A DNA stretch of 64,000 nt from Escherichia coli (GCF_001677475.2 NZ_CP015229.1); one strand, 5' to 3'. Shown: positions 1 through 29,918, numbered from the stretch's first letter. Translations and numbers: made by a program. The notes: generated by a model from the sequence alone, not told the origin.

Positions 1-1393
1 CAGCCAGTGCACGTATAGCGGCGACAAAACAGGCCATCGGCGCAGTGGTGATCCCGGCACCAATTTGCCCGACTCCCGCTTGTTTGTGGGCGATACCCGT
101 ATTGATGACCGGTAAAATGCCGCGATCGGTAACTTTACGCGCATCAATCCCTGCTGCGGTGGGGGCAAAATTGAGGGCAGGAAGTGTAAATGCGGGGTTA
201 CCGCCGAGGGTGATTGCCTGCATCCGACGGCTGTTATTGGTGGCATCGGCAGGTGTGCCTCCCACAAATTTAACGATTGCCGGAGATGACGCCATCGCGA
301 AGCCACCTACACCAGCGGTTTCGGTAATTGCGCTATCGCCCAAGTCAGCAGCGGCGTCGTCAACGCCAAATCCAGGGAAGAACAGACCTTCAACTGCATT
401 GGCGGGAGCCTGGAACCAGCGATCGCCAGTACCGGAAAGCCGAATACCAAAATTCACCCCGTTACGCGCCATCACCGTAACCATTGAACTGAACGGTACA
501 TTGGCGGCGGCATCCATCATTGCTTTACAGGCAGCCATCGACAGATTGAGGAAGAAGTGATCGTTACCGGTGATAAATGCTACGACGCGCTGGATATGTT
601 CCTGTGGAAGAGAGCGGGCCAGCAATGCCGGGATCAGACGCTTAATCAGCAAACCGGTAGCGGCAGCATTGCGGTTATGAACTTCATCCCCCATATGTAG
701 CGCCTGCGCCATTAATGGCTTGAGTTCCAGCTCGCCGTGTTGTGCGATTGCTGCTTTCATTGCCGGAGCCAGTTCATCGCGCATCCAGGCCAGACGATTG
801 AGAACTTCGTCGTTATTGGCGCCAAAACGGAGAACCTTACCCAGACCTTCATTGAAATTACTAAAAGTACGATGACCGTTGGTTTTATTTTCCACCACCC
901 ATAACGGCATTGACGGGCTGATGATGCCTGCCATTGGTCCAACCGCGTGATAATGATGACAAGGGGCAAGGTCGATTTCGCCTGCGTTTATCTGGTTTTC
1001 TGCGTCTTGCTGGCTGGTGGCCCAACCTTCGTACAGCATGGCACCAATAATCGCCCCTTTTACCGGACCACACATCTCTTCCCAGGTAATCGGCGGGCCA
1101 GAGTGCAAAATACGTTTTTGTTCAGCCATTGCTGGAATGGCCTCTTTAGCGAGCATGACATCCACCAGCACGGGCTGTGCTTCGAGATAACGTGTCATGG
1201 CGATTTGGTTGGCATTTTCTACCAGTGGATGACGTAGCAACGATGCCAGATCCAATCCAGCGTCAATATCGCCTTGTGCTGGTGGCTGCCAGTTGAGTGC
1301 AATTGCGCTTCCCCCGGCATGTTGAATATTGTCAGCAAAACTGTGTAGTCCCGCGTTCACGACCTTCAAAGACTGATTAAATAAGGTATTCAT
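1..1393 (-). CDS. Putative YlbE/YahG-like protein (DUF1116 suggested by synteny), C-terminus beyond window start
   Basis: Hand translation of the minus strand from ATG at 1393-1391 (MNTLFNQSLKVVNAGLHSF...) stays open to position 1. Start overlaps the upstream stop as ATGA. Family assignment rests on position downstream of an fdrA-like gene, not on recognised motifs. Confidence 0.5.
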   Translation of the reverse strand, partial: MNTLFNQSLKVVNAGLHSFADNIQHAGGSAIALNWQPPAQGDIDAGLDLASLLRHPLVENANQIAMTRYLEAQPVLVDVMLAKEAIPAMAEQKRILHSGPPITWEEMCGPVKGAIIGAMLYEGWATSQQDAENQINAGEIDLAPCHHYHAVGPMAGIISPSMPLWVVENKTNGHRTFSNFNEGLGKVLRFGANNDEVLNRLAWMRDELAPAMKAAIAQHGELELKPLMAQALHMGDEVHNRNAAATGLLIKRLIPALLARSLPQEHIQRVVAFITGNDHFFLNLSMAACKAMMDAAANVPFSSMVTVMARNGVNFGIRLSGTGDRWFQAPANAVEGLFFPGFGVDDAAADLGDSAITETAGVGGFAMASSPAIVKFVGGTPADATNNSRRMQAITLGGNPAFTLPALNFAPTAAGIDARKVTDRGILPVINTGIAHKQAGVGQIGAGITTAPMACFVAAIRALA

Positions 1394-2949
1394 GCGTTTA
1401 GCCCCTTTTTCTGCAACTGAGTCTGTGCAACGGTGCTGGCCCATAGCGCCGCCTGTGCATTGCTGCTGGCGATGATGACCCCTGCATTTTGTAGTGCGCT
1501 TATCTGCTGGCTGCGTATTTGCGGATCAGCTTCCGTTCCGCAAACGTGCGCAATCAGCAACGGTGCGTTATTCATGTCGATGTGTGAAAGTTGGTCCAGT
1601 AATTCGCTGGCAGGCGTCGTGGAAGCGCCATAACCAAGTACCAGGTCGAATAACACGACGGCAGTGTGTGAGTCGTTGAGTTCGTTGAGCAGACGTTGAT
1701 TGCGCAGAGTCGGATCGATCATTGGATGCGGTTTGCCACGGGTGAAATCATCGTCGCCCATATCGATCAACGTGTGATCTTCGCTTTGCCAGATATTTGC
1801 CAGAGCACGATTACCCGCAACTGGCGTATTGGAAGCTGCGCTGAATCCCTTTTGTTGGCAGATAAGTTGCGCTTCGTAGCAGAAGGTTCCTCCGGCGAAA
1901 ACACCGCGTATCGCCTGGCGATGGGCTGGCAGGCGCTGGCAGGCGTTTTGTAACATTGTGAGATCGTCGCAGGGTACATCGGTTTCGACAGCCGGAAATG
2001 GCTGAGCATTCAGTAACGCCACAGCGATGTCGGCGGCGCTGGCAAGTGTGGTGGCGGCAGTGATATTGGGACGTGCCAGATCATGCGGATTCGCCCCGAG
2101 GAAATTCACCACCACGGGTTTTCCACAAGCCTCGGCGCGCTCCAGAATAGTCCGGGCAACGATCGGTGAAGGCGGTTTTGAAATAAGCACAATCACGCGA
2201 GTTTCATCGTCTTGCGCCAGCGCATCTAAAGCGAAGAGCATCGATATTCCACTAATCTCTTCACTGAGATCATGTCCGCCTGTTCCCAACGCCTGAGAAA
2301 TACCCGCTCCGAGCTGGTCGATTCGGCAAGTCACTTCCTGTAGCCCGGTGCCTGACGCGCCAATAACACCAATCGCTCCACGTTTCACCACATTGGCGAA
2401 GCCTAACGGAATGCCGTTAACGATGGCGGTTCCACAGTCAGGTCCCATTACGATGCGCTGACGTTCTCGGGCAAGTGTTTTGATGGATTTTTCCTGCGCG
2501 ATACTGACGTTATCGCTGAACATCATCACGTTCATTCCGAGGTTTAACGCTTTAATTGCTTCGGCGGCGGCGTAGTCTCCCGGTACAGAAATGAGTGCCA
2601 GGTTGGCTTCGGGTTCGGCTTCCAGTGCCATTTCCAGGCTGACCTTTTCCGGTGTTTTAATGCCACTACCCGTTTCATCATCGGGTTTGCTGGTCAGACG
2701 TTGCTGGGCCAGTACCAGTGCTTCATTGCAAATATCTTCTTCACCCATGACTGCAATCACTAAATCATTGGGACTGGCGTTGATTTCGTTACCCAGACCC
2801 ACATCGCGCAATTGTTCGAGATTATTGGGTGTTCCCATGACGACCGAAGCCTGTTGAATACCGGGCAATTTGCTGATTTGCGCGGAAATCTGCATCAGAG
2901 AAACCGAGTCCTGATAAAGATTGCTGAGAACTTTATGTTTAACTTTCAT
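1390..2949 (-). CDS. FdrA-like protein (succinyl-CoA synthetase alpha-like CoA-binding fold)
   Basis: 519 aa ORF; N-terminal YQDSVSLMQIS motif typical of FdrA/YahF; glycine-rich GVIGASGTG segment. Confidence 0.8.
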   Translation of the reverse strand: MKVKHKVLSNLYQDSVSLMQISAQISKLPGIQQASVVMGTPNNLEQLRDVGLGNEINASPNDLVIAVMGEEDICNEALVLAQQRLTSKPDDETGSGIKTPEKVSLEMALEAEPEANLALISVPGDYAAAEAIKALNLGMNVMMFSDNVSIAQEKSIKTLARERQRIVMGPDCGTAIVNGIPLGFANVVKRGAIGVIGASGTGLQEVTCRIDQLGAGISQALGTGGHDLSEEISGISMLFALDALAQDDETRVIVLISKPPSPIVARTILERAEACGKPVVVNFLGANPHDLARPNITAATTLASAADIAVALLNAQPFPAVETDVPCDDLTMLQNACQRLPAHRQAIRGVFAGGTFCYEAQLICQQKGFSAASNTPVAGNRALANIWQSEDHTLIDMGDDDFTRGKPHPMIDPTLRNQRLLNELNDSHTAVVLFDLVLGYGASTTPASELLDQLSHIDMNNAPLLIAHVCGTEADPQIRSQQISALQNAGVIIASSNAQAALWASTVAQTQLQKKGLNA

Positions 2950-3043
2950 GCTGTTACGCCTGTTTCATTCCGCCCGATAGTAAAATTCGGGCAAAGCATC
3001 CCCGTGTAGCGCCATAAATGAGCTACAGGAGAAAAGGTTGAAA

Positions 3044-3904
3044 TCAATTCATGGTGTTCAGGGTTCGAAAGCCATGCAGCATTCCTGCAAGGCAATCCAC
3101 TCCTGACGTTGCGCCAAATTGCATGACCTGTTCTGCACAGGATGCGATTGTCATTGCCGATGCGCCCCCAACCAGTTGTGCGAGTAACTGGCAAATCGGT
3201 TCTGAAAAATGCCCCCGAAGCGCACGCTCCAGATAATGACGACTGATGTCAGTGGTGTTGTGCGCATGTTGATCAATTGCCTGCTGCAACCGGTATTGAT
3301 GAGCGGCAAGTGGTGCAGGTAGTTGCCATAACCAGAGCGCTGCCAGATAGCCCAACAAATAGTCATCTCCATCGGGAGTTAAGCCTTTGCCAAAGCCGAT
3401 CAGTTGTGGCACCTGGCGTTCCAGCGCATCTGGATGTTCCATAATCTCTAATCCCTGGTGCGTGAGACTATCCGGCAGGTGCAATGTGCTTTGAACGTTA
3501 TGCTCCAGACAAAATAAAAGCCGTTGCGATGCCATCGTTGGGTAGTGCTGGAAAACCAAAGGGAACGCCTCAAGTGTCAGCCTTCCTCCCACAAATGACG
3601 GCTGCCAGAGCGTTGCGTTATCGAGAGCCACACAAAAGCGAGGTGTCTGCAGCAAGCCTGGGGTTAACTGAACGGGATCGGAATGGGCAATCTCTCTTCG
3701 CCAGTCCCAACGCTTAGGCAGCCAGACTCTGGCAGCATCAGGGAGATTCAGATACGTTTGCGCACACAACAGGGTGATGAATGTTCCCGCTTCTGAATAC
3801 AGATTTACCGCATGTTTAAAAGCACTGTGCAGACGTAAATCTTGCGTTTCATTCCACGGGAAAAGATATCCCAACGACGATGCGCAAAGCGTAACCTGTA
3901 CCAT
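3044..3904 (-). CDS. Putative YlbF/YahE-like protein (DUF2877 suggested)
   Basis: 286 aa ORF with a GKGLTPDGDD motif, sitting immediately upstream of the fdrA-like gene as in the fdrA-ylbE-ylbF and yahEFG paralogue sets. Confidence 0.5.
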   Translation of the reverse strand: MVQVTLCASSLGYLFPWNETQDLRLHSAFKHAVNLYSEAGTFITLLCAQTYLNLPDAARVWLPKRWDWRREIAHSDPVQLTPGLLQTPRFCVALDNATLWQPSFVGGRLTLEAFPLVFQHYPTMASQRLLFCLEHNVQSTLHLPDSLTHQGLEIMEHPDALERQVPQLIGFGKGLTPDGDDYLLGYLAALWLWQLPAPLAAHQYRLQQAIDQHAHNTTDISRHYLERALRGHFSEPICQLLAQLVGGASAMTIASCAEQVMQFGATSGVDCLAGMLHGFRTLNTMN

Positions 3905-3909
3905 CGGTG

Positions 3910-4578
3910 TTAGCCTTCCAGGCCTGCAATAATGGCTTTGGAATCAGTAACCCAACCGAAAATGGCACCTTGTGCTTTGATCATCTCCAGGGCGTATTTC
4001 TGGAATTCCGGGAAATAGGAGCCAACGCAATCTTCCGGGATGATGCACTCATAACCACGATCATTCGCTTCGCGCACGGTGGTGGTCACACAGACTTCCG
4101 TGGTTACTCCGCAAACAATCAGCGTTTTGATGCCGTGGTTTTGCAAAATCAGATGTAAGTCGGTTTGATAAAAAGCGCCTTTGCCGGGTTTATCAATCAC
4201 CGGTTCGCCTGCGACCGGGTACAGTTCAGGAATGATGTCATGACCTGCTTCACCTCTGACCAGAATGCGCCCCATCGGGCCTGCTTCACCAATAAAGGTT
4301 TTACCGCCGCGCGTCAGTTTGGCTGGTGGGCAGTCGCTTAAGTCTGCACGATGGCCTTCACGGGTATGAATAACCATAATTCCTTTTTGACGTGCGGCTG
4401 CCAGCACCTCTGTACATGGAGCGATAGCCGTGCGTACCAGTGAAACATCATTGCCCAGTGCCTCACCGAAGCCCCCTGCTTCGACAAAGTCACGCTGCAT
4501 GTCGATCATGACCAGTGCAGTTGTGCGCGGATCAAAAGGTAATTCAAAGGGTTGAGCCTGAAAAATGGATTGCGTCAT
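3910..4578 (-). CDS. Isochorismatase-family cysteine hydrolase (amidohydrolase-like)
   Basis: 222 aa ORF; MIDMQRDF aspartate motif near the N-terminus and LIVCGVTTEVCV cysteine motif; 5 nt from the next gene. Confidence 0.75.
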   Translation of the reverse strand: MTQSIFQAQPFELPFDPRTTALVMIDMQRDFVEAGGFGEALGNDVSLVRTAIAPCTEVLAAARQKGIMVIHTREGHRADLSDCPPAKLTRGGKTFIGEAGPMGRILVRGEAGHDIIPELYPVAGEPVIDKPGKGAFYQTDLHLILQNHGIKTLIVCGVTTEVCVTTTVREANDRGYECIIPEDCVGSYFPEFQKYALEMIKAQGAIFGWVTDSKAIIAGLEG

Positions 4579-4835
4579 GGTAAATCTCCTGTCTGATGTT
4601 TAAACGATCCAGTTGTTCTGAGAACGAGTATTCAGGAGAAAAGCGGCACAAAACAGGAAAAAAGTTTGCCGCACAGCAACGAAATTTTTGCATTCAGCAG
4701 GCGGCGTGATGACGAATGTGAAGGGGGTCAAATCGTGGCATACAGCAACAAAATTTTTGATGCTGTATGGTTTTGAGTTTAAAAAAATCGTTGAAATTGT
4801 GTGAGCTTAAGCACCTGAGTTAGCTGCTATGGTGG

Positions 4836-5645
4836 TTATTTTTTAACACCATACTGCTTAAACCACTCCAGCATACGCTGCCAGCCATCTTTTGCAGATG
4901 CGGCATGATAGCTCGGGCGATAATCAGCGTTGAATGCATGCCCGGCGTCCGGGTACACGATAATCTCTGCTTTCGCATTAGCAGCCCGCAGCGCCTGGCG
5001 CATGGTTTCAACGCTCTCCTGCGGAATGCTGTTATCCTGACCACCATATAAGCCGAGAACCGGCGCGTTAAGATCGGTTGCGATATCAACAGGTTGTTTC
5101 GGTGAATTCAGCGACTTATCGCCTGTCAGTTTGCCGTACCATGCCACCGCCGCTTTCAGTTGCGGGTTATGCGCAGCATACAGCCAGGTGATACGTCCAC
5201 CCCAGCAGAATCCGGTGATCATTAAACGATGAACATCGCCGCCGTTGCGGGAAGCCCAACTGGCGACATGATCGAGATCGGCCAGCACCTGCGAGTCAGG
5301 CACTTTTGCTACCAGACCGCTAAGCAACGTGGGGATATCGGCAAAATCATTCGGATCGCCTTCGCGGAAGTAAAGTTCAGGTGCGATAGCCAGATATCCC
5401 TCCAGCGCCAGACGGCGACAAATGTCGCGGATATGTTCATGCACGCCAAAAATTTCCTGCACTACAATGACCACTGGCAGTGGGCCATCGCTTTGCTTTG
5501 GTCTGGCATGGTAAGCAGGCATGTTATCCCCTTGTGAGGGGATAGAGGTGAAGCCCGCCGCAATCGCGTCGTCCGGGGTCTGAACGATGGTCGAAGCGAG
5601 AGGCGATGCAGCAGGTGCAAATCCAGATTGTTGTGTTGTTGCCAT
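4836..5645 (-). CDS. ysgA: Dienelactone hydrolase-family protein
   Basis: ORF 4836-5711; start placed at internal MATTQQSGF (about 270 aa); position upstream of udp matches K-12. Confidence 0.8.
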   Translation of the reverse strand: MATTQQSGFAPAASPLASTIVQTPDDAIAAGFTSIPSQGDNMPAYHARPKQSDGPLPVVIVVQEIFGVHEHIRDICRRLALEGYLAIAPELYFREGDPNDFADIPTLLSGLVAKVPDSQVLADLDHVASWASRNGGDVHRLMITGFCWGGRITWLYAAHNPQLKAAVAWYGKLTGDKSLNSPKQPVDIATDLNAPVLGLYGGQDNSIPQESVETMRQALRAANAKAEIIVYPDAGHAFNADYRPSYHAASAKDGWQRMLEWFKQYGVKK

Positions 5646-5765
5646 GGTATTCTCCGTACCCTTATAAAAATGTTGCGCAATGTTAACTATAGTCAGCATG
5701 CAACAAATCACATTGCCTGAATCGGCTCATCTTTTATGCAGTCCTGCAGAATGAAGAGTGATTTA

Positions 5766-5833
5766 TGTGATTTGCATCACTTTTGGTGGGTAAATTTATG
5801 CAACGCATTTGCGTCATGGTGATGAGTATCACG
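5766..5833 (+). promoter_or_regulatory. udp promoter region with two CRP-like sites about 52 bp apart
   Basis: TGTGAtttgcaTCACt at 5766-5781 and GTGAtgagtaTCAC at 5818-5833, upstream of udp. Confidence 0.6.
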
Positions 5834-5906
5834 AAAAAATGTTAAACCCTTCGGTAAAGTGTCTTTTTGCTTCTTCTGACTAAACCGATTCACAGAGGAG
5901 TTGTAT

Positions 5907-6668
5907 ATGTCCAAGTCTGATGTTTTTCATCTCGGCCTCACTAAAAACGATTTACAAGGGGCTACGCTTGCCATCGTCCCTGGCGACCCGGATCGTGTGG
6001 AAAAGATCGCCGCGCTGATGGATAAGCCGGTTAAGCTGGCATCTCACCGCGAATTCACCACCTGGCGTGCAGAGCTGGATGGTAAACCTGTTATCGTCTG
6101 CTCTACCGGTATCGGCGGCCCGTCTACCTCTATTGCTGTTGAAGAGCTGGCACAGCTGGGCATTCGCACCTTCCTGCGTATCGGTACAACGGGCGCTATT
6201 CAGCCGCATATTAATGTGGGTGATGTCCTGGTTACCACGGCGTCTGTCCGTCTGGATGGCGCGAGCCTGCACTTCGCACCGCTGGAATTCCCGGCTGTCG
6301 CTGATTTCGAATGTACGACTGCGCTGGTTGAGGCTGCGAAATCCATCGGCGCGACGACTCACGTTGGCGTGACGGCTTCTTCTGATACCTTCTACCCAGG
6401 TCAGGAACGTTACGATACTTACTCTGGTCGCGTAGTTCGTCACTTTAAAGGTTCTATGGAAGAGTGGCAGGCGATGGGCGTAATGAACTATGAAATGGAA
6501 TCTGCAACCCTGCTGACCATGTGTGCAAGTCAGGGTCTACGTGCCGGTATGGTAGCGGGTGTTATCGTTAACCGCACCCAGCAAGAGATCCCGAATGCTG
6601 AGACGATGAAACAAACTGAAAGCCAAGCGGTGAAAATCGTGGTGGAAGCGGCGCGTCGTCTGCTGTAA
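5907..6668 (+). CDS. udp: Uridine phosphorylase
   Basis: [36 protein letters not shown]-terminus; about 253 aa. Confidence 0.95.
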
Positions 6669-6686
6669 TCCTCTTCTCCTGTCTGA

Positions 6687-6717
6687 AGGCCGACGCGTTC
6701 GGCCTTTTGTATTTTTG
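6687..6717 (+). terminator. Intrinsic terminator after udp
   Basis: aaggccgacgcgttcggcctt hairpin followed by a T-rich tract. Confidence 0.7.
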
Positions 6718-6808
6718 CGTAGCGCCTCGCAGGAAATGCCTTTCCAACTGGACGTTTGTACAGCACAATTCTATTTTGTGCGGGTAAGTTGTTGCGTCAG
6801 GAGGCGTT

Positions 6809-8236
6809 GTGGATTTCTCAATCATGGTTTACGCAGTTATTGCGTTGGTGGGTGTGGCAATTGGCTGGCTGTTTGCCAGTTATCAACATGCGCAGCAAAA
6901 AGCCGAGCAATTAGCTGAACGTGAAGAGATGGTCGCGGAGTTAAGCGCGGCAAAACAACAAATTACCCAAAGTGAGCACTGGCGCGCTGAGTGCGAGTTA
7001 CTCAATAACGAAGTGCGCAGCCTGCAAAGTATTAACACCTCTCTGGAGGCCGATCTGCGTGAAGTAACCACGCGGATGGAAGCCGCACAGCAACATGCTG
7101 ACGATAAAATTCGCCAGATGATTAACAGCGAGCAGCGCCTCAGTGAGCAGTTTGAAAACCTCGCCAACCGTATTTTTGAGCACAGCAATCGCCGGGTTGA
7201 TGAGCAAAACCGTCAGAGTCTGAACAGCCTGTTGTCGCCGCTACGTGAACAACTGGACGGTTTCCGCCGTCAGGTTCAGGACAGCTTCGGTAAAGAAGCA
7301 CAAGAACGCCATACCCTGACCCACGAAATTCGCAATCTCCAGCAACTCAACGCGCAAATGGCCCAGGAGGCGATCAACCTGACGCGCGCGCTGAAAGGCG
7401 ACAATAAAACTCAGGGCAACTGGGGCGAGGTAGTATTGACGCGGGTGCTGGAGGCTTCCGGTCTGCGTGAAGGGTATGAATATGAAACCCAGGTCAGCAT
7501 CGAAAATGACGCCCGCTCGCGGATGCAGCCGGATGTCATCGTGCGGCTGCCGCAGGGAAAAGATGTGGTGATCGACGCCAAAATGACGCTGGTCGCCTAT
7601 GAACGCTATTTTAACGCCGATGACGACTACACCCGCGAAAGCGCGCTACAGGAACATATCGCGTCGGTGCGTAACCATATCCGTTTGCTGGGACGCAAAG
7701 ATTATCAACAGCTGCCGGGGCTGCGAACCCTGGATTACGTGCTGATGTTTATTCCCGTTGAACCCGCTTTTTTACTGGCGCTTGACCGCCAGCCGGAGCT
7801 GATCACCGAAGCGTTGAAAAACAATATCATGCTGGTTAGCCCGACCACGCTGCTGGTGGCGCTGCGCACTATCGCCAACCTCTGGCGCTATGAGCATCAA
7901 AGTCGTAACGCCCAGAAAATAGCCGATCACGCCAGCAAGCTGTACGACAAGATGCGTTTGTTCGTCGATGACATGTCAGCGATTGGTCAAAGTCTCGACA
8001 AAGCGCAGGATAACTACCGCCAGGCAATGAAAAAACTCTCTTCAGGTCGCGGAAATGTGCTGGCGCAGGCAGAAGCGTTCCGCGGTTTAGGAGTAGAAAT
8101 TAAACGCGAGATTAATCCGGATTTGGCTGAACAGGCGGTGAGCCAGGATGAAGAGTATCGACTTCGGTCGGTTCCGGAGCAGCCGAATGATGAAGCTTAT
8201 CAACGCGATGATGAATATAATCAGCAGTCGCGCTAG
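6809..8236 (+). CDS. rmuC: DNA recombination protein RmuC
   Basis: 475 aa ORF with N-terminal membrane anchor and long coiled-coil region; conserved position. Confidence 0.9.
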   Translation: MDFSIMVYAVIALVGVAIGWLFASYQHAQQKAEQLAEREEMVAELSAAKQQITQSEHWRAECELLNNEVRSLQSINTSLEADLREVTTRMEAAQQHADDKIRQMINSEQRLSEQFENLANRIFEHSNRRVDEQNRQSLNSLLSPLREQLDGFRRQVQDSFGKEAQERHTLTHEIRNLQQLNAQMAQEAINLTRALKGDNKTQGNWGEVVLTRVLEASGLREGYEYETQVSIENDARSRMQPDVIVRLPQGKDVVIDAKMTLVAYERYFNADDDYTRESALQEHIASVRNHIRLLGRKDYQQLPGLRTLDYVLMFIPVEPAFLLALDRQPELITEALKNNIMLVSPTTLLVALRTIANLWRYEHQSRNAQKIADHASKLYDKMRLFVDDMSAIGQSLDKAQDNYRQAMKKLSSGRGNVLAQAEAFRGLGVEIKREINPDLAEQAVSQDEEYRLRSVPEQPNDEAYQRDDEYNQQSR

Positions 8237-8330
8237 CCCATTGGGGGTAGTTAAGCCGGGTAGAAATCTAGGGCATCGACGCCCAATCTGTTACACTTCT
8301 GGAACAATTTTTTGATGAGCAGGCATTGAG

Positions 8331-9086
8331 ATGGTGGATAAGTCACAAGAAACGACGCACTTTGGTTTTCAGACCGTCGCGAAGGAACAAAAAGCGGATA
8401 TGGTCGCCCACGTTTTCCATTCCGTGGCATCAAAATACGATGTCATGAATGATTTGATGTCATTCGGTATTCATCGTTTGTGGAAGCGATTCACGATTGA
8501 TTGCAGCGGCGTACGTCGTGGGCAGACCGTGCTGGATCTGGCTGGTGGTACCGGTGACCTGACAGCGAAATTCTCCCGCCTGGTCGGTGAAACTGGCAAA
8601 GTGGTCCTTGCTGATATCAATGAATCTATGCTCAAAATGGGGCGCGAGAAACTGCGTAATATCGGCGTGATTGGCAACGTTGAGTATGTTCAGGCGAACG
8701 CCGAGGCGCTGCCGTTCCCGGATAACACCTTTGATTGCATCACCATTTCGTTTGGTCTGCGTAACGTCACCGACAAAGATAAAGCACTACGTTCAATGTA
8801 TCGCGTGCTGAAACCCGGCGGCCGCCTGCTGGTGCTTGAGTTCTCGAAACCGATTATCGAACCATTAAGCAAAGCTTATGACGCTTACTCCTTCCATGTT
8901 CTGCCGCGTATTGGCTCGCTGGTCGCGAATGACGCCGACAGCTACCGTTATCTGGCTGAATCCATCCGTATGCATCCCGATCAGGATACTCTGAAAGCCA
9001 TGATGCAAGATGCCGGATTCGAAAGTGTCGATTATTACAACCTGACGGCTGGCGTTGTGGCGCTGCATCGTGGGTATAAGTTCTGA
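8331..9086 (+). CDS. ubiE: Ubiquinone/menaquinone C-methyltransferase
   Basis: 251 aa; SAM-binding [11 protein letters not shown] motif. Confidence 0.95.
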
Positions 9087-9099
9087 CAGGAGACCGGAA

Positions 9100-11342
<2,243 letters not shown>

Positions 11343-11420
11343 TTTTTTCATCGCTCAAGGCGGGCCGTGTAACGTATAATGCGGCCTTGTTTAATCATCA
11401 TCTACCACAGAGGAACATGT

Positions 11421-11690
11421 ATGGGTGGTATCAGTATTTGGCAGTTATTGATTATTGCCGTCATCGTTGTACTGCTTTTTGGCACCAAAAAGCTCGGCTC
11501 CATCGGTTCCGATCTTGGTGCGTCGATCAAAGGCTTTAAAAAAGCAATGAGCGATGATGAACCAAAGCAGGATAAAACCAGTCAGGATGCTGATTTTACT
11601 GCGAAAACTATCGCCGATAAGCAGGCGGATACGAATCAGGAACAGGCTAAAACAGAAGACGCGAAGCGCCACGATAAAGAGCAGGTGTAA
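11421..11690 (+). CDS. tatA: Twin-arginine translocase subunit TatA
   Basis: [33 protein letters not shown], 89 aa. Confidence 0.95.
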
Positions 11691-11693
11691 TCC

Positions 11694-12209
11694 GTGTTTG
11701 ATATCGGTTTTAGCGAACTGCTATTGGTGTTCATCATCGGCCTCGTCGTTCTGGGGCCGCAACGACTGCCTGTGGCTGTAAAAACGGTCGCGGGCTGGAT
11801 TCGCGCGTTGCGTTCACTGGCGACAACGGTGCAGAACGAACTGACCCAGGAGTTAAAACTCCAGGAGTTTCAGGACAGTCTGAAAAAGGTTGAAAAGGCG
11901 AGCCTCACTAACCTGACGCCCGAACTGAAAGCGTCGATGGATGAACTACGCCAGGCCGCGGAGTCGATGAAGCGTTCCTACGTTGCAAACGATCCTGAAA
12001 AGGCGAGTGATGAAGCGCACACCATCCACAACCCGGTGGTGAAAGACAATGAAGCTGCGCATGAAGGCGTAACGCCTGCTGCTGCACAAACGCAGGCCAG
12101 TTCGCCGGAACAGAAGCCAGAAACCACGCCAGAGCCGGTGGTAAAACCTGCTGCGGACGCTGAACCGAAAACCGCTGCACCTTCCCCTTCGTCGAGTGAT
12201 AAACCGTAA
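11694..12209 (+). CDS. tatB: Twin-arginine translocase subunit TatB
   Basis: [26 protein letters not shown], 171 aa. Confidence 0.95.
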
Positions 12210-12211
12210 AC

Positions 12212-12988
12212 ATGTCTGTAGAAGATACTCAACCGCTTATCACGCATCTGATTGAGCTGCGTAAGCGTCTGCTGAACTGCATTATCGCGGTGATCGTGAT
12301 ATTCCTGTGTCTGGTCTATTTCGCCAATGACATCTATCACCTGGTATCCGCGCCATTGATCAAGCAGTTGCCGCAAGGTTCAACGATGATCGCCACCGAC
12401 GTGGCCTCACCGTTCTTTACGCCGATCAAGCTGACCTTTATGGTGTCGCTGATTCTGTCAGCGCCGGTGATTCTCTATCAGGTGTGGGCGTTTATCGCCC
12501 CAGCGCTGTATAAGCATGAACGTCGCCTGGTGGTGCCGCTGCTAGTTTCCAGCTCTCTGTTGTTTTATATCGGCATGGCGTTCGCCTACTTTGTGGTCTT
12601 TCCGCTGGCATTTGGCTTCCTTGCCAATACCGCGCCGGAAGGGGTACAGGTATCCACCGACATCGCCAGCTATTTAAGCTTCGTTATGGCGCTGTTTATG
12701 GCGTTTGGTGTCTCCTTTGAAGTGCCGGTGGCAATTGTGCTGTTGTGCTGGATGGGGATTACTTCGCCAGAGGATTTACGCAAAAAACGCCCGTATGTGC
12801 TGGTTGGCGCATTCGTTGTCGGGATGCTGCTGACGCCGCCGGATGTCTTCTCGCAAACGCTGTTGGCGATCCCGATGTACTGTCTGTTTGAAATCGGTGT
12901 CTTCTTCTCACGCTTTTACGTTGGTAAAGGGCGAAATCGGGAAGAGGAAAACGACGCTGAAGCAGAAAGCGAAAAAACTGAAGAATAA
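12212..12988 (+). CDS. tatC: Twin-arginine translocase subunit TatC
   Basis: 258 aa polytopic membrane protein in tatABC order. Confidence 0.95.
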
Positions 12989-13029
12989 ATTCAACCGCCC
13001 GTCAGGGCGGTTGTCATATGGAGTACAGG

Positions 13030-14342
<1,313 letters not shown>

Positions 14343-14463
14343 TTACGCTAAGTTAATTATATTCCCCAGTTTGCGTTGTACCGTCAGAGTTCACGCTAAT
14401 TTAACAAATTTACAGCATCGCAAAGATGAACGCCGTATAATGGGCGCAGATTAAGAGGCTACA

Positions 14464-15957
14464 ATGGACGCCATGAAATATAACGATTTACGCGACTTCT
14501 TGACGCTGCTTGAACAGCAGGGTGAGCTAAAACGTATCACGCTCCCGGTGGATCCGCATCTGGAAATCACTGAAATTGCTGACCGCACTTTGCGTGCCGG
14601 TGGGCCTGCGCTGTTGTTCGAAAACCCTAAAGGCTACTCAATGCCGGTGCTGTGCAACCTGTTCGGTACGCCAAAGCGCGTGGCGATGGGCATGGGGCAG
14701 GAAGATGTTTCGGCGCTGCGTGAAGTTGGTAAATTATTGGCGTTTCTGAAAGAGCCGGAGCCGCCAAAAGGTTTCCGCGACCTGTTTGATAAACTGCCAC
14801 AGTTTAAGCAAGTATTGAACATGCCGACAAAGCGGCTGCGTGGTGCGCCGTGTCAGCAAAAAATTATCTCCGGCGATGACGTCGATCTTCACCGTATCCC
14901 CATTATGACCTGCTGGCCGGAAGATGCCGCGCCACTGATTACCTGGGGGTTGACCGTGACGCGTGGCCCGCATAAAGAGCGGCAGAATCTGGGTATTTAT
15001 CGTCAACAGTTGATTGGTAAAAATAAGCTGATTATGCGCTGGCTGTCGCATCGCGGCGGCGCGCTGGATTTCCAGGAGTGGTGTGCGGCGCATCCGGGCG
15101 AACGTTTCCCGGTTTCTGTGGCGCTGGGTGCTGATCCCGCCACAATTCTCGGTGCAGTCACGCCCGTTCCAGATACGCTTTCAGAGTATGCGTTTGCCGG
15201 ATTGCTGCGCGGCACCAAGACCGAAGTGGTGAAGTGTATCTCCAATGACCTTGAAGTGCCCGCCAGTGCGGAGATTGTGCTGGAAGGGTATATCGAACAA
15301 GGCGAAACTGCGCCGGAAGGGCCGTATGGCGACCACACCGGTTACTATAACGAAGTCGATAGTTTCCCGGTATTTACCGTGACGCATATTACCCAGCGTG
15401 AAGATGCGATTTATCATTCCACCTATACCGGGCGTCCGCCGGATGAACCTGCGGTGCTGGGTGTCGCACTGAACGAAGTGTTTGTGCCGATTCTGCAAAA
15501 ACAGTTCCCGGAAATTGTCGATTTTTACCTGCCGCCGGAAGGCTGCTCTTATCGCCTGGCGGTAGTGACGATCAAAAAACAGTACGCCGGACACGCGAAG
15601 CGCGTCATGATGGGCGTCTGGTCGTTCTTACGCCAGTTTATGTACACTAAGTTTGTGATCGTTTGCGATGATGACGTCAACGCACGCGACTGGAACGATG
15701 TGATTTGGGCGATTACCACCCGTATGGACCCGGCGCGGGATACTGTTCTGGTAGAAAATACGCCTATTGATTATCTGGATTTTGCCTCGCCTGTCTCCGG
15801 GCTGGGTTCAAAAATGGGGCTGGATGCCACGAATAAATGGCCAGGGGAAACCCAGCGTGAATGGGGACGTCCCATCAAAAAAGATCCAGATGTTGTCGCG
15901 CATATTGACGCCATCTGGGATGAACTGGCTATTTTTAACAACGGTAAAAGCGCCTGA
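14464..15957 (+). CDS. ubiD: UbiD-family 3-octaprenyl-4-hydroxybenzoate decarboxylase
   Basis: 497 aa; conserved position. Confidence 0.95.
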
Positions 15958-24810: not shown

Positions 24811-26352
<1,542 letters not shown>

Positions 26353-26420
26353 CCTTAAAGAACTGTGCTTTGCAGTGCTCACACAGATTGTCTGATGAAA
26401 ATGAGCAGTAAAACCTCTAC

Positions 26421-26497
<77 letters not shown>

Positions 26498-26539
26498 AAT
26501 TTGCACCGCAAATTTGAAGAGGTTTTAACTACATGTTAT

Positions 26540-26615
26540 GGGGCTATAGCTCAGCTGGGAGAGCGCCTGCTTTGCACGCAGGAGGTCTGCGGTTCGATCC
26601 CGCATAGCTCCACCA
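26540..26615 (+). tRNA. alaT: tRNA-Ala (UGC)
   Basis: ggggctatagctcagctgggagagcgcctgctttgcacgcagg...gctccacca, 76 nt. Confidence 0.97.
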
Positions 26616-26798
26616 TCTCTGTAGTGATTAAATAAAAAATACTTCAGAGTGTACCTGCAAAGGTTCACTGCGAAGTTTTGCTCTTTAAAAATCTGGATCA
26701 AGCTGAAAATTGAAACACTGAACAACGAAAGTTGTTCGTGAGTCTCTCAAATTTTCGCAACACGATGATGAATCGAAAGAAACATCTTCGGGTTGTGA

Positions 26799-29701
<2,903 letters not shown>

Positions 29702-29798
29702 ACAACGCCGAAGCTGTTTTGGCGGATGAGAGAAGATTTTCAGCCTGATACAGATTAAATCGACAGGTCAGAACATGACGTGTTGATAAAACAGAATT

Positions 29799-29918
29799 TG
29801 CCTGGCGGCCGTAGCGCGGTGGTCCCACCTGACCCCATGCCGAACTCAGAAGTGAAACGCCGTAGCGCCGATGGTAGTGTGGGGTCTCCCCATGCGAGAG
29901 TAGGGAACTGCCAGGCAT
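29799..29918 (+). rRNA. rrfA: 5S ribosomal RNA
   Basis: tgcctggcggccgtagcgcggtgg...gggaactgccaggcat, 120 nt. Confidence 0.98.

Follow-up and report, generated by a model that had tools for sequence, protein, structure and literature searches.

The Escherichia coli DNA analysed here (GCF_001677475.2, NZ_CP015229.1; a stretch of 64,000 nucleotides, hereafter the window) carries at its left end four minus-strand genes of an operon. Together with four further genes that follow in close relatives, they would degrade triuret (carbonyldiurea) or a linear oligo-ureide very like it, gaining ammonia and, via carbamoyl phosphate, ATP. We give this reading a probability of about one half. It leans on two observations: the first enzyme of the operon, a cysteine hydrolase, has the active-site residues of the triuret hydrolase TrtA, and its linkage to paralogs of the oxamic transcarbamylase subunits AllF, AllG and AllH is conserved across phyla. 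The locus itself is already known, as it is annotated in RefSeq, was published in 2012 within the tkt1 island and in 2026 as GR29, and contains a crystallised protein; the novelty seems to lie in the function that its sequences suggest.

The operon and its TrtA-type hydrolase

The first gene of the operon encodes the hydrolase (3910..4578, minus strand, an intact open reading frame (ORF) of 222 aa). It is followed by paralogs of the AllH-family subunit (formerly DUF2877; 3044..3904, minus strand, an ORF of 286 aa), the AllF/FdrA-family subunit (1390..2949, minus strand, an ORF of 519 aa) and the AllG-family subunit (formerly DUF1116; 1..1393, minus strand), the 3' end of which is cut by the window edge. 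The first-pass annotation of this DNA had described a four-gene minus-strand operon beside ysgA, and all four ORFs are indeed present and intact up to the edge. Hidden Markov model searches also confirmed its two putative domain assignments, DUF2877 now being Pfam PF11392 AllH (E 7e-27, residues 168-278) and DUF1116 being PF06545 AllG (E 1.5e-98). The F protein passes the NCBIfam FdrA model NF004760 (495 bits, cutoff 433), and its Pfam domains are CoA_binding and Ligase_CoA. The window thus has the three adjacent AllF, AllG and AllH genes that define the AllFGH-type carbamoyltransferase family. In the G gene the frame is open from the ATG at 1393 to position 1 and holds 464 codons versus 474 in the closest relative, so that just 10 codons are lacking; the product is 98.5% identical to the 474-aa protein of that relative. 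The stop codon of F and the start codon of G share the sequence ATGA, an overlap suggestive of translational coupling, and the intergenic gaps measure 5 nt between the hydrolase and H and 94 nt between H and F.

Among solved structures, the best relative of the hydrolase is TrtA of Herbaspirillum (6XIX/6XJ4/6XJE; 271 bits, 59% identity), followed by two biuret hydrolases (BiuH; about 234 bits) and RutB (101 bits). Its top NCBIfam model is that of BiuH (NF050097), where it scores 279 bits (E 1.9e-83), under the cutoff of 370, and it reaches 108.7 bits with the RutB model TIGR03614, for which the cutoff is 377.95. The structural work on TrtA names a catalytic triad, a cis-peptide pair, the triuret-binding residues (F29, E72, K132 and Q202 in TrtA numbering) and six positions that distinguish TrtA from BiuH, with F35, N41, A134, E160, Y187 and I205 as the TrtA consensus (PMC7948467). 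The window hydrolase is isochorismatase-like, with the triad D26/K130/C163 and the cis-peptide pair V158-T159, and its orthologs carry PF00857. Its ligand residues are F31, E74, K133 and Q203, and at the six discriminating positions it has F37, N43, A135, E161, Y188 and I206, agreeing with TrtA at 6/6 and with BiuH at 0/6. Altogether, 15/15 of the TrtA residues checked are identical. The two crystallised BiuH proteins, aligned as controls, have the published BiuH residues at the six positions (Y, Y, S/A, D, T and V). By its score and its residues the protein falls outside BiuH, and on this pattern we assign it to the TrtA type; TrtA converts triuret to carboxybiuret and ammonia (PMC7948467).

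A hydrolase of the TrtA type agrees with the earlier idea of an initial hydrolysis of an amide or ureide, the first-acting position of the enzyme being suggested by gene order and homology. Biuret, one of the candidate substrates named at that stage, is a close chemical neighbour of triuret. The hydrolase is 80-88% identical between Enterobacterales, Vibrionales, Pasteurellales, Burkholderiales, Neisseriales and Xanthomonadales (proteins P0121-P0240; loci L010-L057), a conservation that points to strong constraint, to recent horizontal spread of the module, or to both.

Partner genes and their conserved linkage

The nearest complete genome is 98.2% identical across the first 15 kb of the window, and in it a carbamate kinase gene begins, counted to its start codon, about 25 nt outside the left edge of the window. 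The first-pass annotation had expected the operon to continue beyond the window with a carbamate kinase, and had proposed to look for a transporter on the same side. In relatives the operon does continue, and the kinase, which adjoins the three subunit genes, comes next in every close relative; an NCS1 permease is likewise present in each of them. The full continuation consists of carbamate kinase, a stand-alone protein made of an allophanate-hydrolase C-terminal domain (AH_C), the permease and a LysR regulator. In the nearest relative the AH_C protein is 129 aa long, consists solely of PF21986 and has the same sequence as the 'UPEC-specific' protein c4763 (PDB 5C5Z; UPEC, uropathogenic E. coli). 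The permease is of the CodB type and scores 146 bits with the NCBIfam cytosine-permease model (cutoff 326); the best NCBIfam matches of the regulator are PunR and then AllS.

That this is a third set of subunit genes, besides fdrA-ylbEF of the allantoin region and yahEFG, had been proposed together with its own refutation, namely that the operon might simply be one of those two known loci. The proposal stands, as identities to both sets are only 25-48% and the locus is a different one. F is 40.8% identical to AllF and 41.9% to YahF, G is 48.4% identical to AllG and 46.9% to YahG, and H is 32% identical to AllH (over 115 aa only) and 25.5% to YahE; the All and Yah sets are about equally far from each other. 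With 41%, 48% and 32% identity to AllF, AllG and AllH, a separate clade and a location outside the allantoin regulon, F/G/H is, as judged from these comparisons, a paralog of the oxalurate enzyme and not that enzyme. Among 5426 complete E. coli genomes, 1559 have this operon, 5421 have allFGH and 5109 have yahEFG; it follows that at least 1242 genomes harbour all three sets, and allFGH is co-present in nearly all carriers of the operon. Orthologs of H, at 40-64% identity, occur in Citrobacter, Salmonella, Edwardsiella, Serratia and Caballeronia.

We then considered linkage outside E. coli. Scanning one genome per species turned up 316 proteins related to the hydrolase; the 80 best loci (66-99% hydrolase identity) were annotated against the module proteins, a gene being counted as linked when it lies within 10 kb of the hydrolase. 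AllF-like and AllG-like genes are both linked in 68/80 loci, and together with them occur carbamate kinase (63/80), AH_C (54/80), an AllH-like gene (53/80) or an NCS1 permease (49/80); all seven genes are present in 41/80. Writing T for the hydrolase, H, F and G for the subunits, K for the kinase, C for AH_C, P for the permease and R for the regulator, the order T-H-F-G-K-C-P(-R) is found in Enterobacterales, Caballeronia, Paraburkholderia, Silvimonas and Dyella. The regulator comes first in Vibrio, Photobacterium and Shewanella, and the order is rearranged in Pseudovibrio, in Crenobacter and in one metagenome-assembled genome (MAG) each of Desulfotomaculum and of a gammaproteobacterium. Mycolicibacterium keeps only T-F-G-K, and Chloroflexi MAGs have T-H-F-G-K. 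Linked loci thus span Gamma-, Beta- and Alphaproteobacteria, Mycolicibacterium, Chloroflexi and Firmicutes, and the flanking genes are different at all loci where they were inspected.

The main hydrolases of this set all have the TrtA residue pattern and form a clade with Herbaspirillum TrtA that excludes the BiuH proteins. The linked F and G proteins fall into a single clade apart from AllF/G and YahF/G; the two exceptions are an additional Yah-like set in Avibacterium and the one in the Desulfotomaculum MAG. No paralog with the BiuH signature lies within 10 kb at any of the 68 loci with F/G (0/68), nor in the E. coli island; such a paralog occurs only in L078 and L082, both without F/G. Since the F/G loci are without a BiuH paralog and the loci with a BiuH paralog are without F/G, this distribution suggests that F/G(H) and the kinase replace the hydrolytic BiuH route. 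The loci without F/G are short or truncated contigs (L027, L070, L062, L088), L055 (75% hydrolase identity) and loci whose hydrolases are at 66-71%, among them L078 and L082; these two and L085 carry a different large permease.

H is the fastest-evolving gene of the module, with about 40% identity between E. coli and Caballeronia versus 66-84% for the others. It is absent, with F placed directly after the hydrolase and F/G and usually the kinase kept, from L016, L022, L043, L044, L048, L056 and L061, and it is likewise absent from the Mycolicibacterium loci L069, L071, L073, L074, L079, L081 and L084. We also looked for extra conserved partners in the distant lineages. In Mycolicibacterium a generic amidase 3 kb away on the opposite strand was set aside, its relevance being unclear, and the Chloroflexi loci have a permease of a different family (about 530 aa), with no NCBIfam match. 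Two loci merit separate mention. In Avibacterium gallinarum (L022, 2699-13900) two sets stand one behind the other: first a Yah-like F/G pair, which has a LysR gene to itself, and then the hydrolase with module-type F/G and AH_C. A record labelled Chryseobacterium sp. 18061 (L011) contains a complete module with 86% hydrolase identity and an Enterobacterales-like gene order in an assembly labelled as Bacteroidota, which likely reflects contamination, a mislabelled record or a very recent transfer.

The proposed triuret route and its alternatives

In the route that we favour, the permease would import the compound and the hydrolase would strip one terminal amide as ammonia, leaving carboxybiuret as in the published TrtA reaction. 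The F/G/H complex would move the remaining terminal carbamoyl group or groups onto phosphate, and carbamate kinase would convert carbamoyl phosphate and ADP into ATP and carbamate, the latter decaying to ammonia and CO2. The yield per triuret would then be four ammonia, three CO2 and at most two ATP, and the nitrogen would be fully released without urease, biuret hydrolase or allophanate hydrolase. The part of the AH_C protein is a guess: it may decarboxylate an N-carboxylated intermediate. The AH_C domain of full-length allophanate hydrolase was reportedly proposed, by Fan et al. in J Biol Chem in 2013, to decarboxylate N-carboxycarbamate. We also considered the AH_C protein as the carboxybiuret decarboxylase TrtB and rejected this, TrtB grouping with AtzH and HpxZ (PMC12625717) and the present protein being a PF21986 AH_C.

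For F/G/H, the favoured substrates are carboxybiuret and then allophanate. Both resemble oxalurate in being N-carbamoyl compounds with a terminal carboxylate, and the module has neither BiuH nor AtzF, which speaks for these substrates. Many of the host genera are urease-negative, and in such hosts a route through urea would strand half of the nitrogen, which argues in the same direction. A further argument is that trtA/biuH clusters with allFGHK in nitrifier MAGs lack the carboxybiuret decarboxylase gene trtB (PMC12625717). The model for this step is AllFGH, which has been shown experimentally to be an oxamic transcarbamylase (PMC11326118); it converts oxalurate and phosphate to carbamoyl phosphate and oxamate, from which AllK then yields ATP (PMC11326118, PMC9843812).

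Several points weigh against this interpretation. The hydrolase belongs to a tight subclade of its own (80-88% identity across bacterial classes) and is 59% identical to the assayed TrtA, so that a related but different substrate is possible; moreover, the discriminating residues are defined only versus BiuH and not versus other specificities. The AllH-like gene is absent from several T-F-G-K lineages, and all three AllFGH subunits are needed for the oxamic transcarbamylase activity of E. coli (PMC11326118). Biuret, allophanate, carboxybiuret and oxalurate are each chemically conceivable as the F/G/H substrate. Finally, comammox clusters hold trtA, biuH, atzF and allFGHK together, and since they combine both, the F/G/H route is not always a replacement for BiuH (PMC12625717).

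One alternative is that the hydrolase deamidates biuret, like BiuH, or some other small acyl-urea or ureide, and that F/G/H splits the product with phosphate, as in a conversion of allophanate to carbamoyl phosphate and carbamate. Its best NCBIfam model being BiuH, the labelling of relatives as 'biuret amidohydrolase' in some sources, the separation of its subclade from assayed TrtA and the existence of a natural generalist BiuH (PMC7948467) would all agree with this. However, the score of 279 bits lies under the BiuH equivalog cutoff of 370 and the discriminating positions are those of TrtA in 6/6 cases; the activity of TrtA on biuret is lower by a factor of about 10,000, and its specificity was not switched by single substitutions in the direction of BiuH (PMC7948467). 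We consider this alternative unlikely, if by no means far-fetched. We see distinctly less chance that the module is a second oxalurate pathway, in which F/G/H would be a redundant oxamic transcarbamylase and the hydrolase would act last, as an amidase of oxamate or a similar amide. The homology to AllFGH and AllK, AllS as second-best NCBIfam match of the LysR regulator and the fact that gene order does not prove reaction order are compatible with such a pathway; in addition, oxamate is the product of the transcarbamylase (PMC11326118), and no E. coli oxamate-consuming enzyme came up here. Against it, F/G/H is as distant from AllFGH as YahEFG is and forms a separate clade conserved across phyla, essentially all carrier genomes have allFGH as well, and allantoin genes are absent beside the module at all loci examined. 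The hydrolase also keeps E74, K133 and Q203, residues for the far ureido group of triuret that would be superfluous for a two-carbon amide (PMC7948467).

Two further proposals start from individual gene names. For GR29 of strain BEN2908, a Rut-like degradation of pyrimidines was suggested, with the hydrolase as RutB and the permease taking up cytosine or uracil, on the basis of 31.8% identity to RutB and 26.5% to CodB (PMC12928451), and we too obtained weak NCBIfam matches to RutB and to cytosine permeases. Yet the hydrolase reaches about 109 bits with the RutB model against a cutoff of 378, RutB gives 101 bits among the structures versus 271 for TrtA, the permease reaches 146 of the required 326 bits, and RutA and other Rut genes are absent from the module in the relatives examined, which makes this proposal very improbable. 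Still less credit can be given to the RefSeq name of the FdrA-like protein, acyl-CoA synthetase, according to which the operon would activate an organic acid without any carbamoyl transfer. The CoA_binding and Ligase_CoA domains and the similarity to the alpha subunit of succinyl-CoA ligase speak for it; nevertheless, the sole assayed member of the family, AllFGH, is a carbamoyltransferase (PMC11326118), and the linked carbamate kinase in 63/80 loci is sensible only if carbamoyl phosphate is produced.

Triuret breakdown through carbamoyl phosphate thus remains our preferred reading. It is tempting to go further and to propose an undescribed phosphorolytic, ATP-yielding triuret route with a new carboxybiuret/allophanate:phosphate carbamoyltransferase from a distinct AllF/G/H clade, and to attach an ecological meaning to it, a combination that we regard as possible but rather doubtful. 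In the literature searched, no paper proposes that an F/G/H paralog acts on the TrtA product, triuret is linked with carbamate kinase only in PMC12625717, and no function is given for yahEFG. If the proposal were true, urease-negative enterobacteria could ferment triuret and extract all its nitrogen, and there would be a second, energy-yielding triuret route that needs no BiuH, AtzF or urease. The three-subunit transcarbamylase family would reach beyond oxalurate, and the repeated neighbourhood of TrtA/BiuH-type and allFGHK-type genes in very different microbes, including nitrifiers, would be explained. Triuret is an oxidation product of uric acid and arises when uric acid meets peroxynitrite. 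The enrichment of the module in extraintestinal pathogenic E. coli (ExPEC) of phylogroup B2 and on conjugative plasmids often obtained from poultry and human urine could then reflect a nutrient derived from inflammation or from uric acid, the use of which would be located in the urinary tract and in birds. ExPEC-associated genes catalogued since 2012, including one for a crystallised protein of unknown role, would also gain a testable function, and the tests are within reach of ordinary strains, as BL21 has the operon at this site and K-12 has none.

Genomic setting and comparison with known systems

In K-12, as the first-pass annotation stated, ysgA directly follows metE, the two being 39 bp apart with no operon at the site; BL21 carries the operon. 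In the window, ysgA, udp, rmuC and ubiE come next as in K-12, and alignment with K-12 and relatives places the start of the inserted DNA immediately past the ysgA stop codon. In the nearest relative, hxlB, a phosphotransferase system gene, tkt and a gene for an RpiR regulator lie toward metE. The locus is that of the tkt1 genomic island, which measures 16 kb and lies between metE and ysgA in phylogroup B2 ExPEC; its published gene list comprises isochorismatase, yahE, yahF, yahG, carbamate kinase, a hypothetical protein, a permease and a regulator (PMC3349570), and its ORFs APECO1_2632-2639 correspond to the present module. The ysgA-side junction and the gene order match in the window itself, the metE side being seen only in a relative. 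The island study characterised tkt1 and the prevalence of the island in phylogroup B2 avian pathogenic (APEC), uropathogenic and neonatal meningitis (NMEC) E. coli, and it called the yahEFG-like genes hypothetical, without a proposed substrate (PMC3349570). For window regions 1-15000 and 4579-9100, the best identity to any of the 5426 complete E. coli genomes is 97.4-98.2%, for island genes and flanking core genes alike, which places the window in a divergent Escherichia lineage. Island and core show about equal divergence, so that the island is no newcomer to this lineage. E. coli E69, at only 95.4% identity, was rejected as the source of the window.

The same eight genes occur on a 199-kb plasmid with eitABCD, bounded by insertion sequence elements, and the module is found on 82 conjugative plasmids in PLSDB, 78 from Escherichia and 4 from Klebsiella, many of them from poultry or human urine. 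Its flanks are unrelated in Caballeronia, Edwardsiella and Serratia. By this distribution, the eight genes form a mobile module that travels as a unit. With K-12 yahEFG as query, 119 plasmid places were matched, 108 records at just 60-80% identity. About 7 kb from the module on the eitABCD plasmid (L002, 1-1420) lie an ankyrin-repeat gene and another LysR gene, annotated like K-12 yahD and yahB, and a further Yah-like set may be plasmid-borne.

Between the ysgA stop and the hydrolase start lie 257 bp (4579..4835, minus strand) which also form the right-hand junction of the island and would serve as upstream control region. A GGAG motif stands 8 nt ahead of the hydrolase ATG. Within this region lie a near-perfect palindrome of 31 bp, CATACAGCAACAAAA-T-TTTTGATGCTGTATG (4739..4769, either strand; inverted repeat I3, 93% complementary), and, 69 bp away, a second copy of its half-site, ACAGCAACGAAATTTTTG (4673..4690, either strand; direct repeat D1, 94% identity), which may contribute to the same control. 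At an unchanged distance from the start codon (-190), a matching palindrome recurs in E. coli E69, Citrobacter amalonaticus and Rahnella rivi; in Budvicia it stands at -132. The palindrome at 4739-4769 is a reasonable candidate for the operator of the LysR regulator. A nitrogen-regulated promoter was considered and discarded, there being no sigma-54 match in 4579-4835 and sigma-54 matches across the window being at chance level. A simple sigma-70 and terminator scan gave no convincing result, the sole sigma-70-type match in 1-6000 lying on the opposite strand. The H-F spacer (2950-3043) contains two short inverted repeats, TGTAGC...GCTACA and GCCCGA...TCGGGC; an RNA element was considered for this 94-nt spacer and rejected, spacer length ranging from 23 to 324 nt among relatives and Rfam giving no match in 1-4835. 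Elsewhere, udp and rmuC adjoin in the window (6669-6808), where APEC O1 reportedly has a six-ORF islet (PMC3349570). Region 9454-49392 resembles ordinary Escherichia core, with an rRNA operon including tRNA-Ile and tRNA-Ala at 24811-29916 and the small RNAs Erse, Spot 42, CsrC, ES222 and STnc370.

The closest characterised counterpart of the subunit genes is AllFGH with AllK (formerly fdrA-ylbE-ylbF-ybcF), where the same three families stand beside a carbamate kinase and where, by analogy, the same chemistry would be expected, an N-carbamoyl group passing to phosphate and the kinase then yielding ATP. The two differ in gene order (H-F-G-K in the module versus F-G-H-K) and in setting, AllFGH and AllK belonging to the core and to the allantoin regulon whereas the module is accessory and mobile, with no allantoin genes nearby; in addition, the module has a TrtA-type hydrolase in front and AH_C and an NCS1 permease behind. 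The YahEFG-YahI-YahJ cluster of K-12 is closer in layout. It has the same order of DUF2877, FdrA-like, DUF1116 and carbamate-kinase-like proteins, as well as a LysR regulator and an amide-bond hydrolase, and is 25-47% identical to the module. However, its YahJ, an 'amidohydrolase family protein', stands at the far end of the cluster, whereas the cysteine hydrolase comes first in the module, and the Yah cluster is without an AH_C protein and an NCS1 permease.

The hydrolase itself connects the module to the TrtA-TrtB-BiuH-AtzF pathway of Herbaspirillum sp. BH-1 (PMC7948467). Both have one and the same type of first enzyme (59% identity, with identical active-site and discriminating residues), and the substrate and the first product, carboxybiuret, are probably the same. 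Nevertheless, the clustering of trtA with biuH and with trtB or atzF is not found here: the module is without BiuH, TrtB and AtzF and has F/G/H, carbamate kinase and a free AH_C protein instead, so that its downstream route would be phosphorolytic and ATP-yielding, in contrast to the purely hydrolytic Herbaspirillum pathway. A similar gene neighbourhood was described in 2025 in comammox Nitrospira and ammonia-oxidising archaea, where trtA/biuH lie beside allFGHK and sometimes codB, and was read by its authors as two adjacent pathways, one for triuret and biuret and one for oxalurate (PMC12625717). The comammox clusters additionally hold biuH and atzF, and their likeness to the module is at the level of gene families, a TrtA/BiuH-type hydrolase beside AllFGH-type genes, a carbamate kinase and a permease resembling cytosine permeases (PMC12625717).

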